From assembly GCA_028712375.1 (NCBI GenBank), contig JAQTQG010000003.1, positions 14,619 through 78,618 of the forward strand: a DNA stretch of 64,000 nt. The letters are read 5' to 3'. The position numbers were made by a program, and so were the translations under genes. The notes beneath the pieces were generated by a model. It made no database searches, was not told where the DNA came from, and saw only the letters and a program-made list of their open reading frames with translations. The stretch comes from Candidatus Omnitrophota bacterium (GTDB lineage: Bacteria > Omnitrophota > Gorgyraeia > Gygaellales > Profunditerraquicolaceae). This document shows positions 1,775-20,402 of this stretch, in pieces; the stretch's first letter is position 1; each line of letters opens with the position of its first letter.

Positions 1775-3238
1775 CTAAAAGTTATACTCAATCTCTATCT
1801 TTCCCCCTATAAATACCCTGATAACCTTAATTAAGTCGTTAATCAAATCTCTTTTTTCCTGATCATTAGCCTCAGCCCAGGTAGACTTAAACTCCTTATA
1901 GAATCTACTTTGGCTCTTAAAATCATCCTTTTTTGTTTGTTCTCGCTCAAGTTTAATTCTAGCCTCTAAGATAGAGCATCCTATGCTATCTATTTCTTGT
2001 TTTATCCTCTCCAGCCTACTTAGGACGTCCTCATCATCCGATTTTTCAAGGGCGTTAAGTATCCTTTCTTTTGCCCTTTTTTTACCCTGAAGAGAATCTT
2101 CCTTATTTTTTATCTCTCCTCTAAGTCGGGTAATTTCTATCTGGGAATTTATTTTAAGATGTTTGAATAAATAAGATTCATCTGAAGATAATCCTTCCAC
2201 GTGTTTGAAAATCTCTTCCAGCACCTTATTTTCTAGAAAATCTTTACGATAATTTTTTCTATGCCTACACTTTCCGGGGTTCGTTCTTCTAAGAGAACAG
2301 GCATAATAATACAGATTTCCCCCGATCTTCTTCTGGCTCTTAGTTTGCTTCTGAACTAATTGGTGTCCACACTCACCGCACTGGGCAACATCCCTGATAA
2401 AGAATCCGGGAGCAATAAGTCCAACCTGAGCATGATTCTGGAAGTTCTGTTTTAAAATCTCCTGGGCCTTGGTAAAAACATCTTCACTAATTATCTCTGG
2501 ATGTTTTTTCTCATAGGTTTTTCCCTTTACCATCATCCTGCCTGTATATTTAACATTCTTTAGTATCCGTCTAATCTGCGTGTCTCTTATCAAAAAAGGT
2601 AAAGCGATCTTCTGATTTATCAATTCTTTTACTACTCGCTTATTACTCTTAAACCTGTTATACAGCTCGAAAATTAATCTTACTTTCTCGGCTTCTTCTT
2701 CAACTATAACAAAATGCTTGTTCTCTGATCTATAACCAAATGGAGGATACCCGCCGAAGTTTGTCCCATCCCGAGCAACCTTAATATATCTAGCAGTTAG
2801 GTTACGTTCTCTTATAGTATTTAATTCCATCTCGGCAAAGATCGCAGTTATCTGCATTACAAGTTTCCCCATATCACTAGAGGTATCAAAGGGCTGAGTA
2901 GCTGAAATGAAGACAACTTTGTTCTGCTCAAACTCTTTAAACAAGGTTAGCGTATCAAGAGCAGACCTTGAAATTCTATCAAGACGCCAAACCAATAGGG
3001 CTTTAACCTGGCCTTTGGCGATATCAGCCCTCAGCCTTTGTAATTCAGGCCTTTCGGTGTCGCTACCGCTTAGTTTATCAATATAGAAATCGGAATCTGT
3101 AAGAGGAAGATACCCGTGCAGCTTAGCGCTGTTTAAAATACCTTCCTTCTGCATATCAAGCCCAACCCTATTTACTTCGGCCTGCTCAAGCGTTGAAACT
3201 CGGAGATACGCTTTCGGTTTTATCTGTTCTGTGTTCAT
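1775..3238 (-). CDS. Large serine recombinase (resolvase domain + recombinase domain + Zn ribbon + coiled coil)
   Basis: YLRVSTLEQ (catalytic Ser), VWRLDRISR, GGYPPFGYR, CGECGH...YYYACS...CRHR Zn ribbon, and a K/E-rich coiled-coil tail. The track ORF starts at TTG 3262; ATG 3238 (MNTEQIK) is the more likely start. Confidence 0.95.
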   Translation of the reverse strand: MNTEQIKPKAYLRVSTLEQAEVNRVGLDMQKEGILNSAKLHGYLPLTDSDFYIDKLSGSDTERPELQRLRADIAKGQVKALLVWRLDRISRSALDTLTLFKEFEQNKVVFISATQPFDTSSDMGKLVMQITAIFAEMELNTIRERNLTARYIKVARDGTNFGGYPPFGYRSENKHFVIVEEEAEKVRLIFELYNRFKSNKRVVKELINQKIALPFLIRDTQIRRILKNVKYTGRMMVKGKTYEKKHPEIISEDVFTKAQEILKQNFQNHAQVGLIAPGFFIRDVAQCGECGHQLVQKQTKSQKKIGGNLYYYACSLRRTNPGKCRHRKNYRKDFLENKVLEEIFKHVEGLSSDESYLFKHLKINSQIEITRLRGEIKNKEDSLQGKKRAKERILNALEKSDDEDVLSRLERIKQEIDSIGCSILEARIKLEREQTKKDDFKSQSRFYKEFKSTWAEANDQEKRDLINDLIKVIRVFIGGKIEIEYNF

Positions 3239-3397
3239 TAGTTTTATTTTGCCTTCTTTCAACTATCTTTTTTACTATCTCCCAAAAATGATCTTCGTTT
3301 TCGTTCTTTACTAAATTAGATTTCATTTACTTTTCTCCTTGCTCTATACTTTGTCCTAAACATTGTCTTTTTTACAGTGTAAGATCAAAAAAAATCC

Positions 3398-4061: not shown

Positions 4062-4370
4062 TTACGTCTTTTTAAGTGGCGTACCATCTGAATCTACCAT
4101 CCTATTTGAAACAATTAGAATTAGATCGATTAACCACCACATGCCAAGACCTCCAAGCGTGCATAATTTCAATATCCCTAACCCTACGTAACCAAGATAG
4201 AATCTATCAAATCCCCAATATCCGAGAAAAAGAGAAAGCAATAACGCCACTAACCAACTTTTACCTTCTTTCTGTAGCCCACTAATTGATCTTCCAGATA
4301 CTGCACAACCGCACTTAACGCAAATAACGGCTTCATTGTCTATCTCTGCACCACATTTTTGACAAAACAT
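4062..4370 (-). CDS. Zn-ribbon + TM2-domain membrane protein
   Basis: N-terminal CQKCG...CVKCG ribbon. C-terminal [27 protein letters not shown]...[10 protein letters not shown] matches the TM2-domain pattern. Confidence 0.75.
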
Positions 4371-4392
4371 TAAAGCCTCCTTTATCTTAAAT

Positions 4393-4764
4393 TTATCTTC
4401 CAGTTATAGAATTAATTATAGTCATAGGATGGACAAACCACAGAATAAGAAGTATTGTGAAAATTGTCCCCATAATTACGCCAAACATAGCCCTACCCAT
4501 TCCGTGTTTTTCAGGGTTTCTCTTAATGTCCCTTATCGCGAGAATACCAAATAGCAAAGCAAACGGAGCTGGAATAAAAAGAATGGAAAAGAAAGCTAAA
4601 TAGCCCGCTGTAATAGCATATCCTGATCTTCCCACTGGCAATAAAGCACGAACAAGGGCATCCTGTCCTGGATCCTTGTTTATTTTTGCTCCTGTAGGAA
4701 CTCCGCACTTCATACAAACAACAGCATCGTCTTTAATTTCTCCACCGCATTTTCTACAAAACAT
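4393..4764 (-). CDS. Zn-ribbon + DUF4190-like membrane protein
   Basis: CRKCG...CMKCG ribbon. Two hydrophobic helices flank [26 protein letters not shown], the DUF4190-like pattern as I recall it. Confidence 0.65.
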
Positions 4765-4835
4765 TTTGCTCCTCCCTTTTATTTCCGAAACCAGGTCTTT
4801 TATTCCTTAGTATTTTAGCTATATGTAGATAGCTC

Positions 4836-5228
4836 TTAATTCTTTCGGACACATTCTGCCTCGACTATATTCCCCCCAGGCATTACTGTGAACATTTTAG
4901 TTCCCGTGGTTCCACAAACAGACGGTGCTGCAATAATCCCATATTCGTTAGGAAATAAATTTACTCCATAGTAGTAGCCATTCACTGTTTTGCTATTGTA
5001 AGCTTCAAAATTAGCGAAATATTGAGTAACCTCATCTCCAGTAGTAGGATATTGCCCCCCGTGGGAAGATGCATAAACCTCAAGCGCTGTAGATATATAC
5101 CTAACCGTTGCTTTTGCAGCAGCTTCATTTTTTGCTATATTATTTCCACAACCCATTACAAAACCCCCAATCAGGACACCCATTAACACAATCCAAACTT
5201 TTCTCATTCTACTCCCTCCTTTTTTCAT
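4836..5228 (-). CDS. Small lipoprotein, function unknown
   Basis: Signal peptide with lipobox (GGFVMGC). The mature part AKATVRYISTALEVYASSHGGQYP resembles pilin-like helices but lacks a prepilin cleavage motif. Confidence 0.55.
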   Translation of the reverse strand: MKKGGSRMRKVWIVLMGVLIGGFVMGCGNNIAKNEAAAKATVRYISTALEVYASSHGGQYPTTGDEVTQYFANFEAYNSKTVNGYYYGVNLFPNEYGIIAAPSVCGTTGTKMFTVMPGGNIVEAECVRKN

Positions 5229-5279: not shown

Positions 5280-5531
5280 GTGTTCAAAGAGAGGATTTTA
5301 TTGGAAAATGTTAATATGGAAAACATCAATATCAGGTTCGGTAAACATTTGAGGGAATTAAGGAAGGAACGGGAACTGACACAAGAAGAGCTTGCTGAGA
5401 TTTCGGGGCTTGACTATAAATATATCCAACGTCTGGAAGGTAAAAAGCCTTCTTCTCCTACCCTAAATTCATTAGAAAAGATTGCTAAAGCCTTTAATAT
5501 AAGACTCTCAAAATTACTTAAATTTAATTAA
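5280..5531 (+). CDS. XRE-family HTH transcriptional regulator
   Basis: FGKHLRELRKERELTQEELAEISGLDYKYIQRLEGKKPSSPTLNSLEKIAKAFN is a canonical Cro/CI-type HTH. The start is either GTG 5280 or the in-frame ATG 5316. Confidence 0.85.
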   Translation: MFKERILLENVNMENINIRFGKHLRELRKERELTQEELAEISGLDYKYIQRLEGKKPSSPTLNSLEKIAKAFNIRLSKLLKFN

Positions 5532-6193
5532 TACCAACCATCAAGAATACACATTAGAATGCTTAATTCGTTAAGAACGGCCCGAAACTTCTTGTCCTTC
5601 TTGTAGTGCTTGTTATAAGATTCTTCACCTTGGACAACAAGATATTTCTTCTTTTTTGAATCCCAATCGAATTTAATCCTTGTGCCTTCGGCCTTAGTCG
5701 TAACAGTACGGAGTACTCCATCCTTCTTCATTCTCTTAGCATATTCTTCCTCTGGAATGCCGTCTTTACGAGCATGCTTGCCAATAAACTTCTCATGGAT
5801 CTCACGCACATAATCAATCCACTCTTGCTCTTCACTAGGCGGCTTATAACCTTCTGGCAGAATATCACTCATCTTCTTTGCATTACTCACATAACGAGAA
5901 TAAGCCGTAACATCACCAGTGCCGATCCAACGGTCAATGTCACTCTTGCGGAATATGGCTCTACCATCAGCTATACGTGAGAACGGCATCTTTTCCTGAC
6001 GCACCCAACCATCTATAGTCGTTTGTGGCACGCAAAGATATTCTGCTACTTGGACCTTACTTAAATGAATCCTTTTTGTTTTTTTGAATGTTTCGGATTC
6101 TTGGAGGGATTTTTGATCTAAAAACTCACCACAATGACGACACTTAATAGCTTCTTCTTGGATTTCTTCAGCACAAAATGGACATTTCTTCAT
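5528..6193 (-). CDS. Zn-ribbon + excisionase-type (HTH_17-like) DNA-binding protein with an uncharacterised C-terminal domain
   Basis: CPFC...CRHCG ribbon. LSKVQVAEYLCVPQTTIDGWVRQEKMPFSRIADGRAIFRKSDIDRWI fits the excisionase/MerR-like HTH_17 pattern. It starts 5 nt after the upstream gene's stop. Confidence 0.65.
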   Translation of the reverse strand: MKKCPFCAEEIQEEAIKCRHCGEFLDQKSLQESETFKKTKRIHLSKVQVAEYLCVPQTTIDGWVRQEKMPFSRIADGRAIFRKSDIDRWIGTGDVTAYSRYVSNAKKMSDILPEGYKPPSEEQEWIDYVREIHEKFIGKHARKDGIPEEEYAKRMKKDGVLRTVTTKAEGTRIKFDWDSKKKKYLVVQGEESYNKHYKKDKKFRAVLNELSILMCILDGWY

Positions 6194-6198
6194 ATCAA

Positions 6199-7509
6199 TT
6201 ATTTAGCTAAAGTAAGGCTTTTGAGTGAGTTGGCAAAAAATTCACCAATTATAGATTCTTCATAAGAGATGCTCTCACCTTTAGGTAAGATATAGAGATT
6301 CTTGATTTCATTCATAAGAGAACGGTAATTCTGAACATCAATTGAACTAGAATTAAGATTATCTCTATAGGGGTTAAGTGTTTTCATTTTTTCATTAAGA
6401 TCTTCAATTTTAGAGAAAATTTTATTAATTCTGTTAAAAATTACCTGGTTGGTATAAAACACTTCAAGCTTAATCAACTCTGGCCACATAGCATGCTTAT
6501 TTGCAGTATTAAAATCTTTATAATTCAATAATACCCAATGCGAATCTGCGTATAAATAATTATTTACCCCTATAAAAAGTAGCTGATAGTATTCTTTTAA
6601 ATCCCCATCAAGAGCAGCTAGATAATTACGGGTCACCTTTGCCTCGGGATCTGAATTTATCTTCTTTAAAACAATATCGCCTTTTCGACTCAACTCCTCT
6701 TCTTCGGATTTAATGAATTTTCTAACCTTTTCCTTAGAAATTTCAGTTACATTATCCAATAGCCATTTTGCTACTGTGAGCTTAAAATTTCTTAAACCAC
6801 CATATGAAAGATGCTCTAGGCCATCAATATCAGTAAATTTTTCTACTTCAGGCCGTAGTAAAAGACAAACTTTTATTCCTAATCCATGCATTAAACCATA
6901 CTCATAACTAACACTGTTACTTGCAGAAGATATATCTACAATTCCATATTTACAGGTTTTTATTAATTTGCAAACTTTACAAAGAACAGCTTCAGAGGTT
7001 AATTTATCCTTGGCTATGATTGGAATTAAACCAAACTTAGTTAATATTTCTTTTAAAGCTGATTCGCAATCCTCATATTTTTGATAAGGTATATCTAAAA
7101 AAACGTTATTCTCGTTAAATTCCTGTGTAATTTCATTATTCAAATCACAAGCATCCTTTGCTAAAGGCCCACAGGCATTAATAAAGACTTTTTCCGAATC
7201 CACACTTTTTTGTTTAGGCTTTGTAGCATTCTCCTTGCCACTTTCTTTTTCCAATTTTAACTCTTCTATTGCCATCTGAACTTGACTTTTCATTATGTTG
7301 AATGCTGGTTTCAAAGTATAAGAAGAAAGTGGTAAATTAATTTTGTGGGCATTTTGTATAAAATTATAGTAATATTGTTCATTAAATTTCAACAATGGTG
7401 CAACTTTGTTCGACCAATCAATACATGCTTGCTGAGAAGGAAATCCCTTTTCGACTTCCTCTATATTATAAAGATCTTGTAATTTTTTTAAAATTCCACC
7501 GAAATCCAT
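6199..7509 (-). CDS. Hypothetical protein with a central TIR / nucleoside 2-deoxyribosyltransferase-like Rossmannoid core
   Basis: 436 aa. VFLDIPY...ALKEILTKFGLIPIIAKD...CKYGIVDISSASNSVSYEYGLMHGLGIKVCLLL follows the beta-alpha pattern with a conserved Glu after the third strand, as in TIR/NDT-like domains. The flanking N- and C-terminal regions are unrecognised. Confidence 0.5.
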   Translation of the reverse strand: MDFGGILKKLQDLYNIEEVEKGFPSQQACIDWSNKVAPLLKFNEQYYYNFIQNAHKINLPLSSYTLKPAFNIMKSQVQMAIEELKLEKESGKENATKPKQKSVDSEKVFINACGPLAKDACDLNNEITQEFNENNVFLDIPYQKYEDCESALKEILTKFGLIPIIAKDKLTSEAVLCKVCKLIKTCKYGIVDISSASNSVSYEYGLMHGLGIKVCLLLRPEVEKFTDIDGLEHLSYGGLRNFKLTVAKWLLDNVTEISKEKVRKFIKSEEEELSRKGDIVLKKINSDPEAKVTRNYLAALDGDLKEYYQLLFIGVNNYLYADSHWVLLNYKDFNTANKHAMWPELIKLEVFYTNQVIFNRINKIFSKIEDLNEKMKTLNPYRDNLNSSSIDVQNYRSLMNEIKNLYILPKGESISYEESIIGEFFANSLKSLTLAK

Positions 7510-7558: not shown

Positions 7559-8317
7559 TTACCCTACTTTAACTTCTTTCAGTATTTTCTGGTAAATACA
7601 GAAATCACAATCAGCACTATATTCAGGAACTACGGGACCCACCAAGCATTTATACATCTCAATAATCTTAGCCTCAATCCAAGAATCATTTCCGTCATAA
7701 GGTATTATTTTGATATCGAAATCAAGCTTTGCACTAAAGGTATCCCTGTCAGTAAGCCCATTGCAATACACAAAATAACCGGTTGGAGATACATTAAAAC
7801 CGTTTTTTCTGAATAACCACTGGTATATTTCCATCTGCCTCTTATAAGATATCTGCCAATCAGCATCTATGCTTACTTCTTCTTCCTTTGATGTGCTCTT
7901 GTAATCTACGATAAATAGCTGGCCATCCGATGAGGCCCAAACGTCATCTATCCCCCCTGTAAGTAAAAGATTTGTCGGTATGTGCAGATATTCAATACCA
8001 CCATGAAGAGCATCCCGCCAGATATTCAGCTTATCGTGCTTAAAAGGAACCGCCTTGATCCCATTTGCTTCCATAAGAGGATGGCTTATCTGTTTATTCC
8101 GATAGACATCGAATTCTTTCTTCAGTAACTTGTCTACTGCTGAATTTAGTGTAAAAGGGAACCCGGGTGGTTGCCCTACGCCTAATCTTCTGTCTAAATA
8201 GAAGCAACGTGGGCAATTTATGAATAGTTCAATTTTGGAGCGGCTTAGTTTAAATGGAATTTTACTATGCGGATCGAATAAATTCTTAGTTTTTCTACCA
8301 GTATAGTATTTAGACAT
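7559..8317 (-). CDS. PD-(D/E)XK nuclease, Cas4/RecB-like, with four terminal Cys
   Basis: GGIDDVW...LFIVDYKST (D...D-x-K), QMEIYQWLF (QxxxY), CPRC near the N-terminus and CDFC near the C-terminus (possible Fe-S or metal site). Confidence 0.8.
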   Translation of the reverse strand: MSKYYTGRKTKNLFDPHSKIPFKLSRSKIELFINCPRCFYLDRRLGVGQPPGFPFTLNSAVDKLLKKEFDVYRNKQISHPLMEANGIKAVPFKHDKLNIWRDALHGGIEYLHIPTNLLLTGGIDDVWASSDGQLFIVDYKSTSKEEEVSIDADWQISYKRQMEIYQWLFRKNGFNVSPTGYFVYCNGLTDRDTFSAKLDFDIKIIPYDGNDSWIEAKIIEMYKCLVGPVVPEYSADCDFCIYQKILKEVKVG

Positions 8318-8461
8318 AGACCTACAGACTATTATTCCCGATTCTTCTTTGGCTATCTGCCGCCGTAGAACTTAAACTAGGCTTGGATTTAGGTTATCTA
8401 TCCATCAGCTTAAAAGCTTCCCGCTTTCAACAATGCTGATGTAGTGAAAAAACTATAAATC

Positions 8462-10351
8462 TTAAGAAATAGTTACAACCGCTTCTGCTTCTGACCAAGT
8501 GTTTATCAAATCCAATATTTTTTGAATTTGAATCGGATAATCTTCTAATGAAAGATCTTCATATTTCATAAAAGCAGCTCCGATCTTGCCATGTTTTTCT
8601 ACTTGATTTGTAGCTATGCCTATAATGTTTTCAAGTTCTGGTGTAATTTTGATGATCTTCCCAATATTTTTATCCAAAGAACCATCAATAAAATCGTTTT
8701 CTTTAAACATTCTGAGCTCAGATTCTTCTTTGTCTGTTTTATTAGGTTTATTTTCTGGAAAGTTAATAGGGTCTATATCATGGATAGCAACGTAAGGAAC
8801 TTTGAACTTATTAAGTACTCGCATAAATATATGTATATTGGTTTTTCCGCCACATTCAACTACGCATATGTTTTTAGCAACGAAGTCATATTTTTTATCT
8901 TTTACAGTAAATTTTGTTGCCCAGAAAGGAACTATAAATTTTTCGGTATCACCTTCAACCAATACTACTTTCTTAGAGAAAAACATTTCACTACGCGATA
9001 AGTCAAAAAGGCTTAAATAACGGAAAACTTTTTTTAACCTATTGTTTTCCTGTGTGGTTTCAGCAGCAAATATATCTCCAACAAATTGAAAGGTATTTGT
9101 TGGACCTTTTTCCTCACGCCCAACGATCACGATATTCTTGTATTCAAACATATCTACAAAAAAGTTAGAATGTGTACAGGCCAATATTTGATCAGTAGTT
9201 GCGATATTCCTTAAAACTTCAATCATCTTTCTTTGGCCATTAGGATGTAAATATAGTTCTGGTTCCTCAATTGCAAGTATAAAATTTTTCACCAAGGCTT
9301 CCGGTTGATCTTCTTCTACAATTACAGTACTTACTGTTTTAGCATAAGCTCTTATATAAGCTAAAATTAGTGCACGTTGAAGACCATGTCCCTTAGAATC
9401 AATCGAAGTAGGCAAAGCGTCATCTAAAGTAATATTCACATCTTTAAATAAATCAACAAGTTCGGGAGTGACGATTTCAATACCAACCTTTGTTCCTGGC
9501 ATACTTTCGCTTATTATGCCTGTAATAGTGCTTTCGAAATCTTTTATTTCCTGTAATCGGTCTGAGTCATCTCCAGTACCTGATTTATTTAAATATTTCT
9601 TCAACCCTTCGAGCTGGTTCTTAACCTCTTCAAATTTTGGATTCTTTAAAACTATCCTATTTGTTAAATCGGTTACTAACTTCCCTAATACAGTTTGCTG
9701 TGTAGTCTTAGATTCATCACATGCATCTTTTACAGCAGGAACCAAATAAAATTTAGGCAACAAATCAGCAAATACTTCTTTGAGGCCTGCAGGATTCTTT
9801 ATCCAATCTGGATCACCAAATTCCACTTTTCCGTCCTCTATACACTTCATAACCCCTTCTTTATATGAAGCCTGGGTCACGGTTCCCTTATCAGTTTTAA
9901 AATAGTCTGGTAAATTTTTATCTTTCACAATTTTTGCAATATCCCCTTTATATTCATCAAATCTTGATAGATCAAAATGGAGCTCGCGAGGCTTAGCTTG
10001 CCATCCATAAAACGTCGTTTCATATTTTTCACTCTGATTATTATACTCTACGACCTTTTTCACTCGAATTGCATGGTCATAGATCCAATGCTTAAGATAC
10101 TTTTGTTTTTCATCATACTCAGTTAATCTATCAAATGTCAAAATAATAGTGATTGGTTCATTATTCTTTTTGAAATAAAAATATTCCTCGTTTATCCCCT
10201 TAACCGAATCTTGATAGAATAATTCTATTGCTCGAAGTATATTGGATTTACCTGCATTATTCTCTCCAATAAACATAGCCAATGAATCTATTTCAATTTC
10301 TATGCTGTCTATGGACTTAAATTTGTGTATTTCGACTTTACGTAACTTCAT
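8462..10351 (-). CDS. OLD-family nuclease (ABC-type ATPase + Toprim)
   Basis: Walker A GENNAGKSN. LAIEEPELYLHP (Walker B/D-loop). C-terminal Toprim motifs VVLVEGDTEKF, VVECGGKTN, AIHDIDP. 629 aa. Confidence 0.9.
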   Translation of the reverse strand: MKLRKVEIHKFKSIDSIEIEIDSLAMFIGENNAGKSNILRAIELFYQDSVKGINEEYFYFKKNNEPITIILTFDRLTEYDEKQKYLKHWIYDHAIRVKKVVEYNNQSEKYETTFYGWQAKPRELHFDLSRFDEYKGDIAKIVKDKNLPDYFKTDKGTVTQASYKEGVMKCIEDGKVEFGDPDWIKNPAGLKEVFADLLPKFYLVPAVKDACDESKTTQQTVLGKLVTDLTNRIVLKNPKFEEVKNQLEGLKKYLNKSGTGDDSDRLQEIKDFESTITGIISESMPGTKVGIEIVTPELVDLFKDVNITLDDALPTSIDSKGHGLQRALILAYIRAYAKTVSTVIVEEDQPEALVKNFILAIEEPELYLHPNGQRKMIEVLRNIATTDQILACTHSNFFVDMFEYKNIVIVGREEKGPTNTFQFVGDIFAAETTQENNRLKKVFRYLSLFDLSRSEMFFSKKVVLVEGDTEKFIVPFWATKFTVKDKKYDFVAKNICVVECGGKTNIHIFMRVLNKFKVPYVAIHDIDPINFPENKPNKTDKEESELRMFKENDFIDGSLDKNIGKIIKITPELENIIGIATNQVEKHGKIGAAFMKYEDLSLEDYPIQIQKILDLINTWSEAEAVVTIS

Positions 10352-10708: not shown

Positions 10709-12220
10709 CTATTCTGGAGCTCCCATAATAAAACCTGTGGTAAGCCCTTTTTCTTTAAACCAACTTTTTAATATGCCCTTACTTCCAGCAATTGCCGTAT
10801 CAATTTCTGAATCCGTTGGGGCACTCCACATTTGCCAGTTAAATAATCTTGCTAAACATGCTTTTATTTTTGAGTAGTCGCTATCCACTAAATCCCTATA
10901 AAATGGCTTAGCTTTCTCATCTCCATCATGAATATCTAATTTCGCACATATTGCGTCTCGCAATAGTTCTGACCAGGCCATAATTGATTTTGAAGAAAAT
11001 ATCCTACTGAGTTTACGCTGATTTTGATCACTAGGCGCGGCTGCAGGATTCCAATGTGAAAGCGCAAGTTCAAAAATCATATTCATTAAAGCAATAACAT
11101 TCTTAAACTCTGATTCTCTCCTATATTTTTCTGAAAACATATCATCATCAAGAGGCTCGGTATAAAGAAAACAAGCAAGGATTGACTTAGAGAGCATATC
11201 CACAGTAAGCGGTTGTTCATTGGAGCTCCTATTACTTGTTGAAACGAGTGGTTTGAGTTTATTAGACTCATCTTCAAGAATAGAATTATATAAGTAACTA
11301 CGGAAACGCTTGTTTCGCTCGCCCCGCGTAAGAGATATGTCTTTCTGCTCTAGAAATGACAAAAAACCACTTTCATTTTTTTTCTCAATATCTTCTCTAT
11401 TTTTATACTCTTCAAAATCTTTCCCAAATTGATTCCCTAATTTAAGAATTAATACTGACGAAAAAAATCTTGTTTGGGCGAATTTATCATGTGCTGATAT
11501 ATTAGCTTGATTAAGCATCCTCAAGTCGGGATCAAGATAGATCTTGCATTCAAATGTCTTTCTCCCATTCCACAATATCGCAGCTGCCTTGTGTTGACCA
11601 TCAAAAAGCAATATCCTATTATTTGAAACACGTCCTATTGAAGGTTGCAAAACTGGATAAATCTGGAAATGACGAAACATTTCAAATACTTTATCAAAAA
11701 TCAAATAACGTGGTTGTAGGCCCAAATGTTCATTATCATCATCATCGCTGTTAAGAATTGATATGGGTAAATTACCATAAAAATATTTCCAACCGGTTCG
11801 CGGACAGGTTTGGATATTAAACTGAGATGAAAAGGAGTGGTGTTGTAAAGTAACTGTTTTATCTTGGACATTAATAGCAACCGCTTCTCCAAAAGACTCA
11901 ATATCACCTGCCTTTTTTAAGTGCGTAATTAGATTACGCAATGTTAATCTATCGCCTTCTTCAAAAAATGATTCAAGTCGAAGTTTTATACGAAAATCCC
12001 CTAGAGGCAACATTCCCTTCGCCTTATTATGGTATTCGCACATAGGTGCAATATTATCAAGTTCTGATTGCCCATCTCGAGCATAAGCCCAAATATGGTC
12101 AAAATGAACCCTCTCCCCTTCCGGGATTGCATGCCCATTGGCAAAGCAAATACGCCCATGTCGATTTAAAATTATTTTCTTTTCATCATCATTGATTTGC
12201 CTTTTTAGAGTAATTGCCAT
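10709..12220 (-). CDS. HNH nuclease fused to a DGQHR-type (here DGQHK) ParB/DndB-like domain
   Basis: N-terminus: VHFDHIWAYARDGQSELDNIAPMCEYHNKAKG (HNH). Middle: RILLFDGQHKAAAILW (DGQHR-like motif). GGAGGT SD upstream of the ATG. Confidence 0.8.
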   Translation of the reverse strand: MAITLKRQINDDEKKIILNRHGRICFANGHAIPEGERVHFDHIWAYARDGQSELDNIAPMCEYHNKAKGMLPLGDFRIKLRLESFFEEGDRLTLRNLITHLKKAGDIESFGEAVAINVQDKTVTLQHHSFSSQFNIQTCPRTGWKYFYGNLPISILNSDDDDNEHLGLQPRYLIFDKVFEMFRHFQIYPVLQPSIGRVSNNRILLFDGQHKAAAILWNGRKTFECKIYLDPDLRMLNQANISAHDKFAQTRFFSSVLILKLGNQFGKDFEEYKNREDIEKKNESGFLSFLEQKDISLTRGERNKRFRSYLYNSILEDESNKLKPLVSTSNRSSNEQPLTVDMLSKSILACFLYTEPLDDDMFSEKYRRESEFKNVIALMNMIFELALSHWNPAAAPSDQNQRKLSRIFSSKSIMAWSELLRDAICAKLDIHDGDEKAKPFYRDLVDSDYSKIKACLARLFNWQMWSAPTDSEIDTAIAGSKGILKSWFKEKGLTTGFIMGAPE

Positions 12221-13139: not shown

Positions 13140-13988
13140 ATGAAGTTTGCCGATGTAAATAAGACCATAATAAAGCTGTGCAAAGATAACAGTTTGGATT
13201 TCTTAGCTGAATGCGAAGCTATCCAATCTGAAGTTGATGCCTGCTCTCTACCTGAAATTCTCGACCATTTAGATAATGCAGGTATCATACCCGAATGTTT
13301 TGATCACGATTCTACGGAAGAAAAGTTGTTCGCAAAGTATTGTGACTCTTTATTAGCTCGTGGGTTACGAGAAATAGGATTAAACGCATATACAATACCA
13401 GAACGCAGTGATGCGGCTGATGTTCAAGGGAAGGGTAGCAATTACACTATTGTTGGAGATGCTAAAGCGTTTCGTCTTAGCAGAACAGCAAAAAACCAAA
13501 AAGATTTTAAGGTCGAGGCTCTTGATAAATGGAGAAATGGATCCGATTTCGCTGTATTAGTAAGCCCTCTTTACCAGTACCCAAATACAAATAGCCAGAT
13601 TTACTCACAAGCAATAAGGTATAATGTTACCCTATTATCTTATACCCACCTAGCTTTCCTAATAAGAAATAGAAATAATATAAAGAATGGCTCTCTTAGG
13701 GGATTATGGGAAATCGGAAAAAAGCTCTCTATTGGTAAAAGCGCCAAATCATACTGGGGATTAATTGACGCTAAAATGCTAGAAATTACCGGGAAGGATA
13801 AAAAGGATTGGGATAGCGCTATAGAAACAGAATACAAATGCTTAGTTCAGAGAGCTAAGGACGAGATTAAGTATTGGGAAGATGAAAAAGCAAAGATATT
13901 AAAATTGTCTCACGATGCGGCAATACAAGAACTAATTAAGGCTAGGAAAATAACAGAAAAGGTCGGAGTTATTAAGCAGTTTATATAG
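13140..13988 (+). CDS. Putative type II restriction endonuclease (PD-DxK)
   Basis: 282 aa, convergent with and 7 nt from the methyltransferase stop. AADVQGKGSNYTIVGDAKAF fits D...(D/E)xK. The specific family was not recognised. Confidence 0.55.
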   Translation: MKFADVNKTIIKLCKDNSLDFLAECEAIQSEVDACSLPEILDHLDNAGIIPECFDHDSTEEKLFAKYCDSLLARGLREIGLNAYTIPERSDAADVQGKGSNYTIVGDAKAFRLSRTAKNQKDFKVEALDKWRNGSDFAVLVSPLYQYPNTNSQIYSQAIRYNVTLLSYTHLAFLIRNRNNIKNGSLRGLWEIGKKLSIGKSAKSYWGLIDAKMLEITGKDKKDWDSAIETEYKCLVQRAKDEIKYWEDEKAKILKLSHDAAIQELIKARKITEKVGVIKQFI

Positions 13989-13995
13989 CGTTGAT

Positions 13996-16200
13996 TTAAA
14001 GAGATTTTCTTTTTGTGATTTTGAAGCCTGAATAGAGTGTTGAGATGTAGTCTGAAATACTCATAATCATATCTGCATCACATCCACCCCCAGTGATGTT
14101 CTTATAGTTGACCAGTAACCCAATTCCCTGTGCGAATATTGCCAACCCAATGTCTTTCTCGCTCCATCCCGCTTCTTTCAACACATTACCATAATCAGAT
14201 ACGTAAGAAGATACCTTAGCAATTATTTCGGGGAAAGATATTGATGATTTCTCTTCCATTGTTTTATGACAGACGAAGGTAATGCAAGTATCTATTGCTT
14301 CTGATGTCATGCCGCGAGGTCTTGCTTTTCTTTCTATACTAAGTGGTTGCACGCTTGTGATTATAAAATTAGTGTCTCTAAACGCCCGAATAATTGCGTC
14401 CCATCCGCCTAGTGAGCTATGGCTATAAATAAACGATAGGACGCCGTCATATTTCAAAACTCTCTCAGCTTCTTTTATCGCCTTGCCTAATTCTAAGCAA
14501 TACTTATCGTGAGCTTCAAGGGCCGATTGACTACGAAATGCTGAAGCAACTAATTCGGAACCAAAGCTAGTGTCTTGTTTGTTAAATAAATCCGGATCAA
14601 CATTTTTTAATAAAATTCTTTTCCACGCATAAAAGAAATCCGCTAATATGCTGTAATAAATATTATCATAGTATGGGGGATCTGTTATAATTGCATCAAA
14701 ATAATTGCTCTTAAATGGGAGGTTTTGGGCAATTCCACAGTTTACTTCCGGTTTATATGGAAATTTTTCGATGGAGCTAATGCCTGAAATGATACGGTCG
14801 AGCTTATCCCAAAGATTAGCTGGGCCATTCATTATGGGGTCTATTTCGCCATAATCCCAAAGCATGGGAACGCCTGGACCGCAAAAAGCTCGCCCCATCT
14901 GTTCATTTTGCGAAATCCACATAGATAAACGACAATTCCAATCCACAAGTTGATCAATTAAACTCGCCAATACAGAAATAGCAAAATCCGCCAACTCCTT
15001 TGAATTCTGCTCCTTCAATAACCGATATTCATCTTTCAGACACTTTATCAAAGACAGTAGAACCACCCTCTGCCTTTTATTGACAAAATCACTATGAGTT
15101 TCTATGCCGTAAACTGAGGGGTTCACAATGCCGGACCATTTGGGCAATTTCGTATTTGGAAGACTGCTTTCTAAAGATTTTAATAAATCATTTTCAAGAT
15201 GAGAGATCTTAACGGCTGAGGGAATCAGCAAATCGTTGTTTTCTATAAGCAAAAACTCTTTCCCGGATTTTTCTTTCCGCTTAACAAAAGCAATTAGCTC
15301 ATCTCGAGTGTTGCTAATATCAACTTTTTCAACTATATGAGAGCATTTTGGGCATTTAGCAGACCCATTTCGACCTTCCCAATTTGAGTTATGTTCATAT
15401 TTGTCATCCACTTCCTTAATCCCAATATGCTGTCGATCCTTGGAATTATTTATAATAATTGCTATTCGCTTATTTTTCTTGCGTGACAGCCAGGGTCTTT
15501 TTATTAAATAATATACATATTTACATTTTGGGCATTTTAATGAATACGTCCAGAAATACACTACAGGTGGTCTTTGTTTCGTCTCGGATATCTCACCCTG
15601 CTTACTTCTTGATACCCCTCCCTTCCTCAATGGAAACAATTCATTTGTTGCTTCTTCTAAAGACTTTAAAACACGAATGCCAGATTTCCTTACAATATCT
15701 TCGGCACTTCTTAAATCAACTTTCTGCGAGTATTCAAGATTTGCTTTTTGTATAAAAACAGACAATTCATTCGCATCAATAGAGTATGCTTTGGCACCTA
15801 TGTTGGCTATTTCTAATGGTATTGTTCCTCCACCACCAAACATATCTAGGGCCTTTGGAGGAACTACGTATTGTTCTTTAATAATAGCTCGGGCTTTATC
15901 TATGGCACTTTTGTTTGCATCCCCCGCTAACTCAACCATTATTTCATACATTTTAGGTGTACTTATTTTACATAGAGAAGCAAACGCAAGTATCCTCATA
16001 GCAGAATGAGGTCTTCGAGCCCACCAAACGTGGAGTGTATGCGACGTTTCTCCACTTCGGTATCGTTCCGCAAGACCAGCTATTGAGGCTTCGTAATGTA
16101 AAAGTCCACTATCTATCAAACGATGTTCCGAAGTGTTTGGGATCAGAGCAATTTCAGGACTTGATTGGGTTTTATTTTGACACATACTACTTATTGGCAT
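13996..16200 (-). CDS. DUF1156-type DNA methyltransferase (DPPY, N6-A/N4-C class) with an internal Zn ribbon
   Basis: LHVWWARRPHSAMR (DUF1156 signature as recalled), DMFGGGGTIPLE (SAM motif I), ITDPPYYDNIYY (motif IV), and CPKC...CPKC ribbon in the middle. Confidence 0.9.
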   Translation of the reverse strand: MPISSMCQNKTQSSPEIALIPNTSEHRLIDSGLLHYEASIAGLAERYRSGETSHTLHVWWARRPHSAMRILAFASLCKISTPKMYEIMVELAGDANKSAIDKARAIIKEQYVVPPKALDMFGGGGTIPLEIANIGAKAYSIDANELSVFIQKANLEYSQKVDLRSAEDIVRKSGIRVLKSLEEATNELFPLRKGGVSRSKQGEISETKQRPPVVYFWTYSLKCPKCKYVYYLIKRPWLSRKKNKRIAIIINNSKDRQHIGIKEVDDKYEHNSNWEGRNGSAKCPKCSHIVEKVDISNTRDELIAFVKRKEKSGKEFLLIENNDLLIPSAVKISHLENDLLKSLESSLPNTKLPKWSGIVNPSVYGIETHSDFVNKRQRVVLLSLIKCLKDEYRLLKEQNSKELADFAISVLASLIDQLVDWNCRLSMWISQNEQMGRAFCGPGVPMLWDYGEIDPIMNGPANLWDKLDRIISGISSIEKFPYKPEVNCGIAQNLPFKSNYFDAIITDPPYYDNIYYSILADFFYAWKRILLKNVDPDLFNKQDTSFGSELVASAFRSQSALEAHDKYCLELGKAIKEAERVLKYDGVLSFIYSHSSLGGWDAIIRAFRDTNFIITSVQPLSIERKARPRGMTSEAIDTCITFVCHKTMEEKSSISFPEIIAKVSSYVSDYGNVLKEAGWSEKDIGLAIFAQGIGLLVNYKNITGGGCDADMIMSISDYISTLYSGFKITKRKSL

Positions 16201-16519: not shown

Positions 16520-17104
16520 TTAAACACTAAGTAGCTCGGCACACTCCGCCAGATCTTCCTTCGTTACGCCCGTGTAGATCTGCGTCGTAGAAACGAACTT
16601 GTGTCCCAAAAACTCCTGCACCTTCCGGATGTTGCCACACTTTCGCATTAACTCCGTCCCAACCGTGTGCCTCAGACAGTGTGGTGAATATCTTCCTTCC
16701 AAGCCACTTTCACTAACCCATTTATTAAGGTTTAACTGCACTGCCCTCTGGGTAATTCTTTTGTTGTTCCTTGATAAAAATAAGGGTTCGCTCAAGGAGA
16801 AGCCTTCATCCTTTGCCTTTCTCTGCCTAATGTATTTATCTATGTGGGCTCTAATATCCTTGTTTAATGGTATTTGCCTAATCCTGTCGCCCTTGCCTTT
16901 TATCTCCAACACTTCCTTTGACGAATAGCCGTTGTGCACATCCTTGGCATTAAGGTTGATCGTTTCACTAAGGCGTAATCCAGTATTAAGCATAAGGTCA
17001 AACATACAATAATCACGCCAGGCTTTCCTGCTGTCGGCAAGTGTCTTTAAGAATTGTTTCTTTTGTTCAGAAGTCAGATATCTTATCGTGTTCCTCTTGG
17101 CCAT
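16520..17104 (-). CDS. Short tyrosine recombinase (Xer/phage-integrase catalytic domain only)
   Basis: NTGLRLSE, HCLRHTVGTEL, LGHKFVSTTQIYTGV (R..HxxR..Y). The likely start is ATG 17104 (GAGGTG SD); the track ORF extends to 17134. Confidence 0.9.
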   Translation of the reverse strand: MAKRNTIRYLTSEQKKQFLKTLADSRKAWRDYCMFDLMLNTGLRLSETINLNAKDVHNGYSSKEVLEIKGKGDRIRQIPLNKDIRAHIDKYIRQRKAKDEGFSLSEPLFLSRNNKRITQRAVQLNLNKWVSESGLEGRYSPHCLRHTVGTELMRKCGNIRKVQEFLGHKFVSTTQIYTGVTKEDLAECAELLSV

Positions 17105-17105
17105 T

Positions 17106-17528
17106 TCACACCTCTTCGTTAATATACTGCTCAACCTTAACCCTTACCTTTTCTTTTAATACCTGAAACTCTTCTGAGAACTCGCCATTATCACTAAAAT
17201 CTCTGTCTTTCCATAAATTGTCATACGCCTGGCAGAGAAAATATTGGTATTCTTTATTTTGCGGGGACATCTCAATAGCCTTAAGGATAATTTCAGTGCC
17301 TGTCCTTAAAGAAGTAACCCAGAAAGTTGTAAGCAGAATATATGATTGTTCGTAAAGAAGCTCTGCTCTCTGTTCTTTTGAGAGGCCGTAATTCTGCAAT
17401 AATTTATAGACCCTATCAAGCCTCTCAGATTTTTGTGTATCTCCATCAGGTTCTTGAGCAAAGAGATTAACTAAAAATAATAACGACATCGAAACTATTA
17501 AAATAACTATTATCTGTTTTGTATTCAT
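17106..17528 (-). CDS. Small secreted helical protein
   Basis: GGAGGTG SD upstream of ATG 17528. Signal-like MNTKQIIVILIVSMSLLFLVNLFAQ. No enzymatic motif. Confidence 0.5.
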   Translation of the reverse strand: MNTKQIIVILIVSMSLLFLVNLFAQEPDGDTQKSERLDRVYKLLQNYGLSKEQRAELLYEQSYILLTTFWVTSLRTGTEIILKAIEMSPQNKEYQYFLCQAYDNLWKDRDFSDNGEFSEEFQVLKEKVRVKVEQYINEEV

Positions 17529-17576
17529 TTTCACCTCCAATATCTTTTTTCCTATATATGGCCTGACCCTGGCTTC

Positions 17577-18971
17577 CTATGAATTAGCAAAAAAACCTAT
17601 CTTGGTTTTATTGTCCTTAACAAAGATTCCGTCCTGTTCTAGACTCGCTCCAAACAAAAGGTCATTCATTGTAATAATATTCCTTTTCTCTTGAACCAGC
17701 CGTCGCAGGGCGTGGAAGACAGCATTCTTGATGTAGCCACCACTAAACTGAAATTGTCTGGCCAGAACAGCAAAATCAACACCTTGGGCAAGAGTTACCT
17801 TGCTTGGAATATGCGATCGCCAAATTTCTTTGCGTATCTTCTCATCAGGCAAATCAAATTTAACCTTTAAAGTAACTCTGCGTTCAAGTGCAGGATCAAG
17901 CAAATTATCCATGTTCGAAGTTAAGATTACCACTCCTTCAAACCGTTCAATTTCCTGTAGCATAATATTAACAAACCTAATATCGTGTTCTTGGGCTGCG
18001 AAGTTGCGGTTATATAAAATAGAATCCGCCTCGTCAATACAGATAACAACATTATTTTGCTTTGCTGACTTAAAAATAGAAGATATTTGTTTATCGGTTT
18101 CACCAAACCAACGTGAATTTATTTTGGGAAATTCAACAACAAGCAACTTCTTCTTAAGATGTTTTGCTATTGCCTCAGATAACATCGATTTTCCCGTGCC
18201 GGGCGGACCGTAAAAGAGGAAAACCAATCCTTTGCCATTTTTAATTGTTTCTTCTACACCAAGATCTTCAAGTCCTTTATCCTGCAACCCGGATAATAAG
18301 AAACTGACGTTTTTCTTCACATCGAGAGATAGCTTAACATCTTCAAGAGAATATGCCGGATCCTTTAAAAAACCAACCTCTTCGCAAGGGTGTAAATCTT
18401 TTTTATTTTCTGCCCTTCCAGGTCTAGATTCTTTATACTCCCCACTTATCATCCTAGAAAAAACGTCCAACAAAGACGAACTCATCCCGAAACTGACTAC
18501 GGCCGAGTTGTGGTTGTTTCGATAATATGGGTACAAAATAGAATATTTTAAAAGATTGGCATTTCGGTTAAAATAACGAGACAACCCCATTCTCCCGATT
18601 ACAGAATCATTTAAGTCAAAGATCCTAAGGAGCAGATCCCTTGAACAGATATTCTCTTTTAGGTGCAAGAACTCCAAATAAAGGTAATATAGGAGTATTT
18701 GCTTTTCAAAGATATCCAAACCGTATAGCGAGGCAGTTTTTTCTAACGCAAACTTACTGCCCTTAGACATGGAATCCTGTACCCTTTGCCAAAACAAAAC
18801 TTCTTTTGTCTTTATTGTTGAGTCCAATTCTGATACATTCTTGCGGAATGCCTCTACATCATCCTTAGATTTCTTAATAAGAATAATTCTTTTGTTTTGG
18901 TAAAGTTCGCAGATCTTGAAATATTCTTCGATGTATTCTTGGTCACCTGAAAGAAAATTATTTTCCGGCAT
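17577..18971 (-). CDS. Classical-clade AAA+ ATPase with an uncharacterised N-terminal domain
   Basis: FLFYGPPGTGKSMLSEAIA (Walker A), VICIDEADS (Walker B), LTSNMDNLLDPALERRV (second region of homology). AAGGAG SD upstream of ATG 18971; the track ORF is over-extended to 19037. Confidence 0.9.
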   Translation of the reverse strand: MPENNFLSGDQEYIEEYFKICELYQNKRIILIKKSKDDVEAFRKNVSELDSTIKTKEVLFWQRVQDSMSKGSKFALEKTASLYGLDIFEKQILLYYLYLEFLHLKENICSRDLLLRIFDLNDSVIGRMGLSRYFNRNANLLKYSILYPYYRNNHNSAVVSFGMSSSLLDVFSRMISGEYKESRPGRAENKKDLHPCEEVGFLKDPAYSLEDVKLSLDVKKNVSFLLSGLQDKGLEDLGVEETIKNGKGLVFLFYGPPGTGKSMLSEAIAKHLKKKLLVVEFPKINSRWFGETDKQISSIFKSAKQNNVVICIDEADSILYNRNFAAQEHDIRFVNIMLQEIERFEGVVILTSNMDNLLDPALERRVTLKVKFDLPDEKIRKEIWRSHIPSKVTLAQGVDFAVLARQFQFSGGYIKNAVFHALRRLVQEKRNIITMNDLLFGASLEQDGIFVKDNKTKIGFFANS

Positions 18972-19617
18972 TACCTTTTCTCCTTTCTTTCTGCACAAAC
19001 TTATCAAAATCCTCAACTGTCTTTTTGAGCCTTTCATTCATCTGATCATTCATTAACTTTGTTAAGGCTATCGCTTTTTCATATTTCTTGCCATACCAAA
19101 TAAGTTTCTTCGTAGGTTTACCTTTGTAACACCACCGCTTAAAACTCGCCGCTTGCTTTATCAGTTCAGGCACATTGATTACGCCAAATTTCTTATAAAT
19201 ACCGCTTAATCTAGAACTCTCATAAGCAAGATCAAAACAGTTTCGACATCCAAAATAATTGCCGACCCTGTAAAGTACCCCTACCCGCCTATCACAGCCT
19301 AAGATTGACAAAGGACACTTAAACCAATATCTGACACCGCCGTAATTACAAGAAGTTGCGACTAAATCGACCCTGTATTCGAAATTCTGATATTCTCCAT
19401 TAGGCTGAAGAATAGAGTAATAGAAATCTAAGAATGGATCATTCTTGTTTATAAACGATACTACAATATGGATACCGTTTTTAAAGACTTCCCCATTATA
19501 AGGAATATCAATAATCCCAAAATCACTGGCTTCTAAAAAATCATTAAGTTTTAGTGATAATATTGGAATCTTGTAAAGGTTATCTGCCACCAACTTGGGG
19601 CTTTTATCTCTGTCCAT
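18958..19617 (-). CDS. Zn-ribbon protein, function unknown, overlapping the AAA+ gene by 14 nt
   Basis: GAGGTG SD upstream of ATG 19617. CNYGGVRYWFKCP...CDRRVGVLY...FGCRNCFDLAYESSR is a 4-5 Cys cluster. Confidence 0.55.
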   Translation of the reverse strand: MDRDKSPKLVADNLYKIPILSLKLNDFLEASDFGIIDIPYNGEVFKNGIHIVVSFINKNDPFLDFYYSILQPNGEYQNFEYRVDLVATSCNYGGVRYWFKCPLSILGCDRRVGVLYRVGNYFGCRNCFDLAYESSRLSGIYKKFGVINVPELIKQAASFKRWCYKGKPTKKLIWYGKKYEKAIALTKLMNDQMNERLKKTVEDFDKFVQKERRKGNAGK

Positions 19618-19738
19618 TGTAAAACACCTCAAAAAAATGCCGAAATGAATAAGAATTCTTTGATTTCAATCTTAAATTGGTTGACCAATTTTGCCTTTTA
19701 TATAAACCAAAAATAACACGCAGAAATAATCAACTTTA

Positions 19739-20098
19739 TTACCATTCAATAATAATCTTCTTATCTAACATCTGCACTTTTCCGATAGCCTCCATTTTGA
19801 TTAGGCGTTTTCCCTTGTTTTCTGACACCTGGTTGAGTGATCTATCTTTTGACATAGCAAAACACCTTTTTGACTCATTCCCCTCGGAAAATCGTGTTGA
19901 GTTGGTCAAAACGCCTTCCAGAATTGACCTGACATATACTCTGCTAGGACCAATTCCTTTTCTAGCAGGATTGTGCCCCATTCTGAATGGGAACAAATAA
20001 CAACCCGTCGTGTTATCACAGAAGCGAACATCTTTAGGCCTACCTGCACAAATAAGACAGTGTTTTCGGATGGCTTGTAACGGCGTAAGGTGTTTCAT
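19739..20098 (-). CDS. Small Cys-rich protein (LQAIRKHCLICAG...RFCDNTTGCYLFPFR)
   Basis: AGGGGG SD. Cys cluster near the N-terminus. Preferred over the antisense ORF 19677-20000, which has no SD or motif. Confidence 0.5.
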   Translation of the reverse strand: MKHLTPLQAIRKHCLICAGRPKDVRFCDNTTGCYLFPFRMGHNPARKGIGPSRVYVRSILEGVLTNSTRFSEGNESKRCFAMSKDRSLNQVSENKGKRLIKMEAIGKVQMLDKKIIIEW

Positions 20099-20299
20099 TT
20101 ATAACCCCCTTTCGTGCCCACTCTTCTGGCCTACGACCGGAATCAACTTTACTGAGAGTAGTTCAAATTCACTTAAGTTGTCTCCTCTGTCGTTTTTCAA
20201 TATTACTTTGGCTGTTGAGGAACTCCGCCGAAGGCGGATAAATGTATAACTACTCTTTTGTACAATACTCTTCTGTAAAGTATTCTATTGTGTCCCCCT

Positions 20300-20390
20300 A
20301 CTTAGGGGGTAGCGAATAACCTATATAGGAGACAGTAAATAACCCACTTAGGGGGTAGCAATAACCCATATAGGGGTAGCAAATAGTATA
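20300..20390. repeat. Iteron-like direct repeats (putative origin)
   Basis: ACTTAGGGGGTAGCGAATAACCTATATAGG (20300-20329) and ACTTAGGGGGTAGCAATAACCCATATAGG (20346-20374), plus a third GGGGTAGC core at 20373-20380. They lie directly 3' of the Rep-like gene. Confidence 0.6.
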
Positions 20391-20402
20391 ACTAAATCCA
20401 TA

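Follow-up and report, generated by a model that had tools for sequence, protein, structure and literature searches.

In bacteria, plants and animals alike, immunity relies centrally on TIR-type NAD+/nucleotide glycosidases as executioners, and a question that recurs for these enzymes is how each of them senses infection. A compact, single-gene case of this question, from a phylum without a cultured model, lies in a 64,000-nt stretch of a Candidatus Omnitrophota bacterium genome (GenBank assembly GCA_028712375.1, contig JAQTQG010000003.1, positions 14,619 to 78,618), hereafter the window. At 6199-7509 of the window, an initial annotation made from the letters alone had placed a 436-aa protein with a core resembling TIR domains and nucleoside 2-deoxyribosyltransferases (NDTs) between unrecognised domains. 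Our preferred reading, to which we give a probability of about 0.55, is that this protein works as a stand-alone, single-polypeptide abortive-infection (Abi) protein, combining a killing core, a predicted N-glycosidase of the TIR/NDT fold, with two exchangeable helical control or sensing modules. New in it are the core clade with its proposed zinc knuckle, two helical modules that no curated family covers and that are promiscuously re-used, and the combination of N module, core and C module.

The open reading frame (ORF) lies on the minus strand; the plus-strand frame of the same interval contains stops throughout and was discarded. Its product matches an NCBI entry, P0001, over the full length with 100% identity ('MAG: hypothetical protein PHS66_01520 [Candidatus Omnitrophica bacterium]', encoded on a 95.5-kb contig), and HMMER, run exhaustively against 1.84 billion cluster representatives, retrieved 479 relatives at E≤1e-3, which together show that this is no chance ORF. 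That annotation had missed the strand, an invariant four-cysteine knuckle, the re-use of the flanks as modules and the status of the gene as cargo of a serine-recombinase island in comM. BLAST and HMMER mapping over 172 relatives, combined with an AlphaFold2 model built from a 39-row alignment, resolved the protein into three independent units. The resulting layout, with predicted local distance difference test (pLDDT) values, reads as follows.

6199..7509, minus strand: the complete gene, ATG start, TAA at 6199-6201, 436 aa
7225..7509, minus strand: N module, aa 1-95, a five-helix domain (pLDDT 79-96)
7180..7224, minus strand: charged linker, aa 96-110, predicted to be disordered (pLDDT <50)
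6655..7179, minus strand: TIR/NDT-fold core, aa 111-285, including the Cys knuckle and a C-terminal helical extension
7147..7173, minus strand: Cys knuckle C113-x7-C121 (CGPLAKDAC), a candidate for the first half of a Cys4 metal site
6970..6981, minus strand: C177-x2-C180 (LCKVC), within the helix that follows strand 2, a candidate for the second half of that site
6901..6903, minus strand: GAG codon of E203, the predicted catalytic Glu (SYEYG)
6202..6654, minus strand: C module, aa 286-436, an up-down bundle of seven helices with a four-helix-bundle core

The model confirmed the fold that had been proposed for the core. All three motifs cited in its favour are present (VFLDIPY at aa 136-142, LIPIIAKD at aa 161-168 and YGIVDISSASNSVSYEYGLMHGLGIKVCLLL at aa 188-218), and the predicted alternation of strands and helices was reproduced, with strands at 132-139 (VFLDIPY), 162-165 (IPII), 186-192 (YGIVDI) and 213-218 (KVCLLL), helices at 146-158, 173-184 and 198-209 (SYEYGLMHGL), and pLDDT values of 80-98 across the domain. 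The Glu expected after strand 3 is E203, which sits in the helix following that strand. Besides the knuckle (aa 113-121), the core comprises four beta-alpha units (aa 132-218), a conserved loop F-x-D-I-x-G-x-E-H-x-x-Y (aa 225-236) and two further helices (239-253 and 259-276). This flavodoxin-like beta-alpha core superposes on TIR domains, with the Glu at the catalytic position, as well as on the NDT/DNPH1/MilB superfamily (PF05014). In the structural ranking, with which Foldseek agreed, MilB scored highest (13.3), followed by two NDTs (11.9 and 11.8), RCL/DNPH1 (11.6), the TIR domains of RPS4/RRS1 (11.5 and 11.4), Cap12 (10.5), SARM1 (10.4), ThsB (10.2), Cat1 (9.7), the SLOG domain of ThsA (9.6), SpbK (9.5) and TIR-SAVED (9.4); SpbK is represented among the structural neighbours by the filament 9phb. 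The structure search thus sets the core beside MilB, NDTs, TIRs and SARM1, within the assemblage to which it had been assigned and not in an unrelated fold. Fold searches with the full-length protein listed only matches to the core domain.

At the level of sequence, the best Pfam match of the protein was PF10137 (CAP12-PCTIR_TIR; 16.1 bits, E=0.011, aa 146-233), below the gathering threshold of 24.7 bits, and PF05014 (Nuc_deoxyrib_tr) likewise stayed at 14.2 bits (E=0.05) for a threshold of 28.8 bits. No match to the Pfam models TIR (PF01582) or TIR_2 (PF13676) was found, nor any significant one in NCBIfam or PHROGs. Across the family, PF10137 was matched by 31 of the 109 core-carrying proteins and PF05014 by 8 (E≤1e-3), the best PF10137 E-value among these homologues being 3.5e-10. 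PADLOC models hit by the same 109 members were PDC-S35 (21, weakly), the CBASS 'Effector TIR' (18), PycTIR (2) and ThsB (2). Three PDC-S35 models, supplied with no curated cut-off, matched the protein itself; of these, PDLC05004, its best defence-model match (E=1e-5), covers only aa 199-258, and PDLC05007, a 278-position model, spans aa 37-257 (E=7e-5). The best match of the family profile in the Protein Data Bank (PDB) was the Cap12 TIR-STING structure 7un8 (E 0.0015), with YELGL aligned to FEFGL; correspondingly, SVSYEYGL aligned to NVVFEFGL of Cap12 with the Glu motif in register, and the h-h-x-F/Y-E-x-G-h motif that PF10137 carries after strand 3 is present in the protein. A literature search for the residue number of the Cap12 catalytic Glu found none. 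By these profile comparisons, the core appears to be a distinct, uncurated clade distantly related to PF10137 and PDC-S35. Elsewhere it is fused to receiver domains, HEAT repeats, sigma-54 AAA+ modules, EAD7, bacterial Death-like and Shedu-like domains, a range of partners that points to an effector role. Two relatives (P0131 and P0149) carry the core domain in tandem duplicate.

Conservation was scored over 113 aligned homologous domains, with occupied positions as denominators. E203 is a Glu in 100 of 107 domains and aligns with the Glu of the Cap12 FEFG motif, which bears out the suggestion that the putative catalytic residue is conserved. Equally marked are F137 (108/108), G205 (106/107), D192 (101/108), D227 (98/106) and Y236 (103/106), and C177 and C180 are each kept in 105 of 109 domains. 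In a diverse subset of 34 sequences (alignment A6), C113, C121, F137, C177, C180, D192 and D227 are invariant, and a C-[PG]-[LI]-x4-6-C knuckle motif occurs in nearly all of the ~100 homologues inspected. The knuckle was modelled at low confidence (AlphaFold2 pLDDT 43-60), as expected for a metal-dependent loop. The site formed by C113, C121, C177 and C180 probably binds Zn and would fasten the leader at the N-terminus to the helix that follows strand 2. Judged from the alignments, the Cys4 knuckle is the hallmark of the core clade and separates it from Cap12 and PycTIR.

As for the flanks, the claim that they carry no recognised motif held: neither aa 1-95 nor aa 279-436 gave a significant match in Pfam, NCBIfam or PHROGs. 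Their extents, put at ~130 and ~170 aa, were corrected to aa 1-95 and aa 286-436; the linker at aa 96-110 varies in length and sequence among homologues. Among the 172 relatives, the N module and the core are combined only in P0001-P0004, and the core and the C module only in the protein studied here, which makes its N-core-C layout unique in this set. The N module was found in 57 carrier proteins that are 45-79% identical, with the signature GFPSQxACIxWxNKVAPLLKFNxQYYxNF...SQxxMAIEEL and L7, A8, W32, N34, L40, Y46, Q76 and A80 invariant in the alignment. It precedes TIR_2, PLDc_2, a DpnII/MboI-type restriction endonuclease (REase), Hypoth_Ymh and single-transmembrane regions, follows the membrane part of SieB-like proteins with two transmembrane (TM) segments, and lies internally in larger proteins. 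Hypoth_Ymh is a HEPN-class domain. SieB as an identity for the module itself was rejected, the Pfam SieB matches covering only the TM half of those proteins. One carrier, the 365-aa protein P0042 with a predicted TM segment, is encoded at 6001-7098 of its locus (L017) between menF-like (chorismate-binding) and menD-like genes; this insertion into a menaquinone operon is isolated and far from any defence island.

The C module, with the signature NYKxFNxxNKxxxW, recurs at 55-79% identity and has 11 carriers. It follows TIR_2 domains in five proteins (P0014, P0015, P0025, P0051 and P0071) and elsewhere forms a stand-alone protein of ~175 aa. Word-index searches recovered none of these with the module alone and three proteins with its alignment, against nine carriers by exhaustive search, a shortfall that reflects the sensitivity limit of the word-index method. 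Two of the stand-alone proteins stand in defence-like settings. In the region 939-2555 of L012, P0170 lies 16 nt after the gene of a SAVED-domain protein, itself preceded by an AAA+ ATPase, and in the region 2402-6522 of L010, P0158 comes just after an AAA_11/AAA_12 helicase of 1178 aa that includes an MTES_1575 nuclease-like domain. For neither module did the PDB contain a sequence relative, and neither matches a Pfam model for effector-associated domains (EAD) or bacterial Death-like domains (bDLD), and hhalign found the two unrelated to each other. Between them, the N and C modules are joined to no fewer than six chemically different kinds of killing domain (Zn-knuckle TIR-like, TIR_2, PLD, HEPN, REase and SieB-like membrane domains). 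Recurrence of this kind, as read from sequence, has the appearance of classic effector swapping on a constant module, and the association with TIR_2, PLD, HEPN (Ymh), REase and SieB-like TM effectors argues for the flanks being sensors or adaptors.

We compared the gene contexts of nine homologues, and no neighbour gene was conserved across them. In addition, tblastn with all modules and the 172 relatives revealed no second copy of a module in the window. These two results argue for a stand-alone protein, and the latter led us to drop the idea of a homotypic adaptor, that is, a second N or C copy in a neighbouring gene. Large serine recombinases or their remnants lie one to three genes from the homologue in L001, L003/L004 and L015; the recombinase of the window is ~3 kb (five genes) away. 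A helix-turn-helix (HTH) gene directly adjoins the core gene in the window, L003/L004 and L015, and other homologues have none. In L003 the gene upstream of the homologue P0010 encodes a 60-aa protein with weak HTH_8/MerR_1 matches only, and in L015 that upstream of P0018 encodes a 136-aa HTH_17 protein. A locus search with the single core domain yielded two Omnitrophota loci. No relative was detected by tblastn in 50,697 phage or 72,556 plasmid records, and a phage or plasmid origin was set aside on that result.

A separate observation concerns L003 and L004, loci from two metagenome samples between which a 4.4-kb cassette is inverted (L003 ~6428-6604 and 10962-11138; L004 1-4586). The cassette holds the genes for the 60-aa HTH protein, the core homologue P0010, a 171-aa protein and a large serine recombinase. 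Its breakpoints fall in a perfect inverted repeat, the right arm of which is the 3' end of the recombinase gene, so that inversion swaps the recombinase C-terminus (549 vs 566 aa).

We propose that the protein operates in the following way. At rest, the enzyme domain would be inactive, either as a monomer or as an auto-inhibited oligomer. A phage cue, most likely a structural or replication protein, would be bound by the four-helix bundle of the C module, the five-helix N module or both, and binding would drive self-association of the core domains. This would complete an active site around E203, with D192, D227 and Y236 as the other near-invariant residues, and cleavage of an N-glycosidic bond, most likely that of NAD+, would deplete the substrate and stop growth before the phage matures. 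TIR-type enzymes need oligomerisation for activity (bioRxiv 10.64898/2026.05.01.722283), and the helical modules may control the oligomerisation required by the core, probably through phage-protein binding as in Swarozyc and SpbK. In this scheme we infer the substrate, the trigger, the oligomerisation step and the bound metal; the analysis itself shows the gene and its fold, the conservation of the Glu and Cys residues, the recurrence of the modules, the lack of any conserved partner gene and the setting in a mobile defence island. NAD+ is the most likely substrate on the grounds that the nearest sequence relatives, Cap12 and PycTIR, are NAD+-depleting effectors. Among the activities open to such a core, namely NADase, nucleotide glycosidase or sensor, all of which the initial annotation had named, the evidence leans towards NADase.

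Comparison with named systems places the protein near several of them and within none. Its match to PF10137, the model of Cap12 (SfSTING TIR-STING, PDB 7un8) and PycTIR, stays below the gathering value. Unlike these effectors, it carries the invariant Cys4 knuckle and has two helical modules as partners of the core instead of a second-messenger sensor. It contains no STING, SAVED or cyclic-nucleotide-binding domain, and neither such a domain nor a cyclase was found in the scanned ORFs of the island; a fused sensor together with an operon cyclase, which characterise CBASS and Pycsar effectors, are therefore both missing. PDC-S35, the best defence-model match, follows the same single-gene logic, but its proteins measure ~265-278 aa and have no C module. 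PDC-S35 is one of 145 'phage defence candidates' obtained by guilt-by-embedding (Payne et al. 2024, bioRxiv 10.1101/2024.01.29.577857). As the matches are weak and partial, we regard it as a neighbouring clade and not as the same family. The CMP N-glycosidases MilB and BcmB, DNPH1 (RCL) and the NDTs, whose PF05014 model the protein matches below threshold, are small homodimeric metabolic enzymes without sensor modules or Cys knuckle, and are not known from defence islands as fusion proteins of this type.

Alike in architecture are Swarozyc (DUF4062) and SpbK, in which a TIR-type NADase and a helical auxiliary domain form one polypeptide that stands alone on mobile elements. Their activation, by binding of a phage structural protein and subsequent oligomerisation, was adopted here as the working model. 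Swarozyc, a TIR-like NADase that acts as a single protein, recognises the phage portal (bioRxiv 10.64898/2026.05.01.722283); the resemblance to it is architectural only, with no DUF4062/PF13271 match at E≤10. Thoeris of the ThsB type differs in that no conserved adjacent gene for a signal-binding effector accompanies the homologues in the nine contexts, and its model touched only the two family members mentioned above. EAD and bDLD adaptors resemble the flanks in being small all-helical modules promiscuously attached to many effector domains, and EAD7 and bDLD1 are present on some proteins with the same core. However, beyond the missing Pfam matches and partner copies, the protein has no conserved STAND/NTPase partner. 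Such adaptor modules of NTP-dependent conflict systems were reportedly described by Kaur et al. in 2020. Collectively, the protein seems to work like single-gene TIR or TIR-like Abi proteins, yet its scores stay below the curated threshold of each named family that was tested.

The gene is cargo of a ~19-kb island of low GC content (36.4% vs 42.7% in the rest of the window), and its own GC content of 30.8% is the lowest among the island genes measured, its neighbours ranging from 33 to 40%. The island interrupts comM, of which the ChlI N-terminal part remains at 1510-~1740 and the remainder at 20955-22298, and both junctions (~1719-1738 and ~20960-20979) carry the imperfect direct repeat TC[CT]GATATCAA[GA]AAAGA. 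No flanking inverted or direct repeats of note surround the gene itself. The genes around it, which include defence genes, are given below; the island also contains a MerR-type protein. This context, together with the partner domains of the modules, supports the defence setting that had been suspected from the letters.

1775-3262: large serine recombinase, at the left end of the island
4062-5228, minus strand: three small genes between the recombinase and the operon of the gene studied here
5528-6193, minus strand: zinc-ribbon (ZnR)-HTH_17 gene (excisionase/MerR-type), 221 aa, its ATG 5 nt after the stop codon of the gene
7559-8317, minus strand: Cas4-like PD-(D/E)XK nuclease, 252 aa
8462-10351, minus strand: OLD-family ATPase-Toprim nuclease, 629 aa (PADLOC Old, E 2.8e-88)
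10709-12220, minus strand: 503-aa protein carrying an HNH motif at its N-terminus as well as a DGQHK motif
within 13140-16200, plus strand: HindIII-family REase, 282 aa (Pfam E 1.3e-84)
within 13140-16200, convergent with the REase gene: 734-aa DUF1156-type methyltransferase (PADLOC MTase_II, E 4e-197)
16520-20831, minus strand: right part of the island, with integrase, AAA+ ATPase and RepO-like genes

Several observations weigh against the stand-alone NADase that we favour. The Glu is absent from 7 homologous domains, which have Arg, Lys or Val instead, and every match of the protein to a curated family remains below its threshold. PDC-S35 is itself only a candidate (bioRxiv 10.1101/2024.01.29.577857). 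Profile-profile comparison (hhalign) of the family with the TIR_2 domains of partner proteins aligned the two in register without significance (probability 0.7, E 0.076), and canonical TIR_2 membership was rejected on that basis. The likeness of the C module to four-helix-bundle sensor domains is generic and neither module has an informative homologue, so that a sensing role is an assumption. Further, the top structural neighbours MilB, BcmB and DNPH1 are nucleotide N-glycosidases and not NADases, for which reason NAD+ is not secured as the substrate. The main rival is favoured by this ranking and compatible with the sequence: with the same architecture and abortive-infection logic, the core would be a MilB/BcmB/DNPH1-type nucleotide N-glycosidase acting on CMP, dNMPs or a modified nucleotide in place of NAD+, and would deplete the nucleotide pool or destroy phage-specific modified nucleotides. 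We consider it a minority reading. That the core lacks catalysis altogether, serving as a SLOG-like nucleotide-binding sensor or a TIR-type scaffold, is highly unlikely, given that the Glu, two Asp and the Tyr are near-invariant, that no other effector domain exists in the protein and that its closest sequence relatives are catalytic effectors.

Gene order also speaks in part against a stand-alone protein: with only 5 nt to the downstream HTH gene, and with OLD and PD-(D/E)XK packed ahead of it on the same strand, the gene could be part of a multi-gene unit. The protein might then belong with the OLD, PD-(D/E)XK and/or ZnR-HTH genes to one system, for example in the manner of Thoeris, with the TIR making a signal that switches on a nuclease encoded next to it. 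All four genes are on the minus strand, separated by 144, 49 and 5 nt, with no convincing terminator between them, and HTH genes also flank two homologues, as noted above (one weak HTH_8/MerR_1, one HTH_17). We nevertheless judge this unlikely: OLD or PD-(D/E)XK was next to the core gene in 0 of 9 homologue contexts, the HTH partner is not constant in size, side or family, the neighbours have no SLOG, Macro or other known signal-sensing domain, and the GC content of the gene departs from that of its neighbours. A promoter and terminator scan gave counts equal to the shuffled expectation, no better than chance, and was set aside as uninformative. The 221-aa ZnR-HTH_17 protein may be a regulator transcribed together with the gene or a recombination directionality factor, and whether it belongs to the unit is uncertain. 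Distinctly unlikely, too, is an addiction role, in which the protein would be a toxin-like module that stabilises the island and not an anti-phage sensor, the glycosidase being unleashed once the element, or a labile regulator (the HTH protein, for instance), is lost. Serine recombinases repeatedly lie near the gene and a small HTH gene is often adjacent, but about half of the contexts have neither, and effector swapping on the N and C modules, along with co-location with restriction-modification and OLD genes, is typical of defence genes.

An extension of the stand-alone reading, which we put forward tentatively and regard as rather improbable, is that the N (~90 aa) and C (~150 aa) modules serve Omnitrophota and neighbouring uncultured lineages as interchangeable 'address' or sensor cassettes, from which a combinatorial immune repertoire is built. 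All the effectors that carry them would respond to a common trigger or hub, the protein, being the only one with both modules, would integrate two inputs, and its core would represent a new clade of enzymes, acting perhaps on a nucleotide and not on NAD+. If the modules are sensors or adaptors, the identity of their ligand would explain a whole set of unannotated defence proteins, and the core would add a new branch, possibly with a new substrate, between the TIR and NDT families. Were it simply another NADase Abi gene, it would be a routine addition to the defence catalogue; interest would rise with a shared sensing or adaptor system, or with a substrate other than NAD+.

The remaining island genes yielded some minor observations. 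Those at 4062-5228 encode a zinc-ribbon protein with TM2 (102 aa), a zinc-ribbon protein with DUF4190 (123 aa) and a 130-aa protein with a signal- or lipoprotein-like N-terminus, and the 221-aa HTH protein shares its zinc-ribbon start motif (MxxCPxCxxE...C..CG) with the small zinc-ribbon membrane proteins. The OLD gene is followed, 144 nt on, by the Cas4-like PD-(D/E)XK gene (7559-10351, minus strand). The 503-aa HNH protein has a weak DGQHR/DndB-like match (TIGR03187, E 0.05) and no PADLOC match. At 16520-20831, the integrase is accompanied by a 142-aa RepO-like protein and by an AAA+ ATPase of 486 aa whose N-terminus is a winged helix, and the gene content suggests a satellite- or prophage-like replication module. 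The 204-aa ORF of the Phage_integrase family (tyrosine integrase) is overlapped there by a 144-aa ORF, the two being possibly one gene that is split or mis-started.

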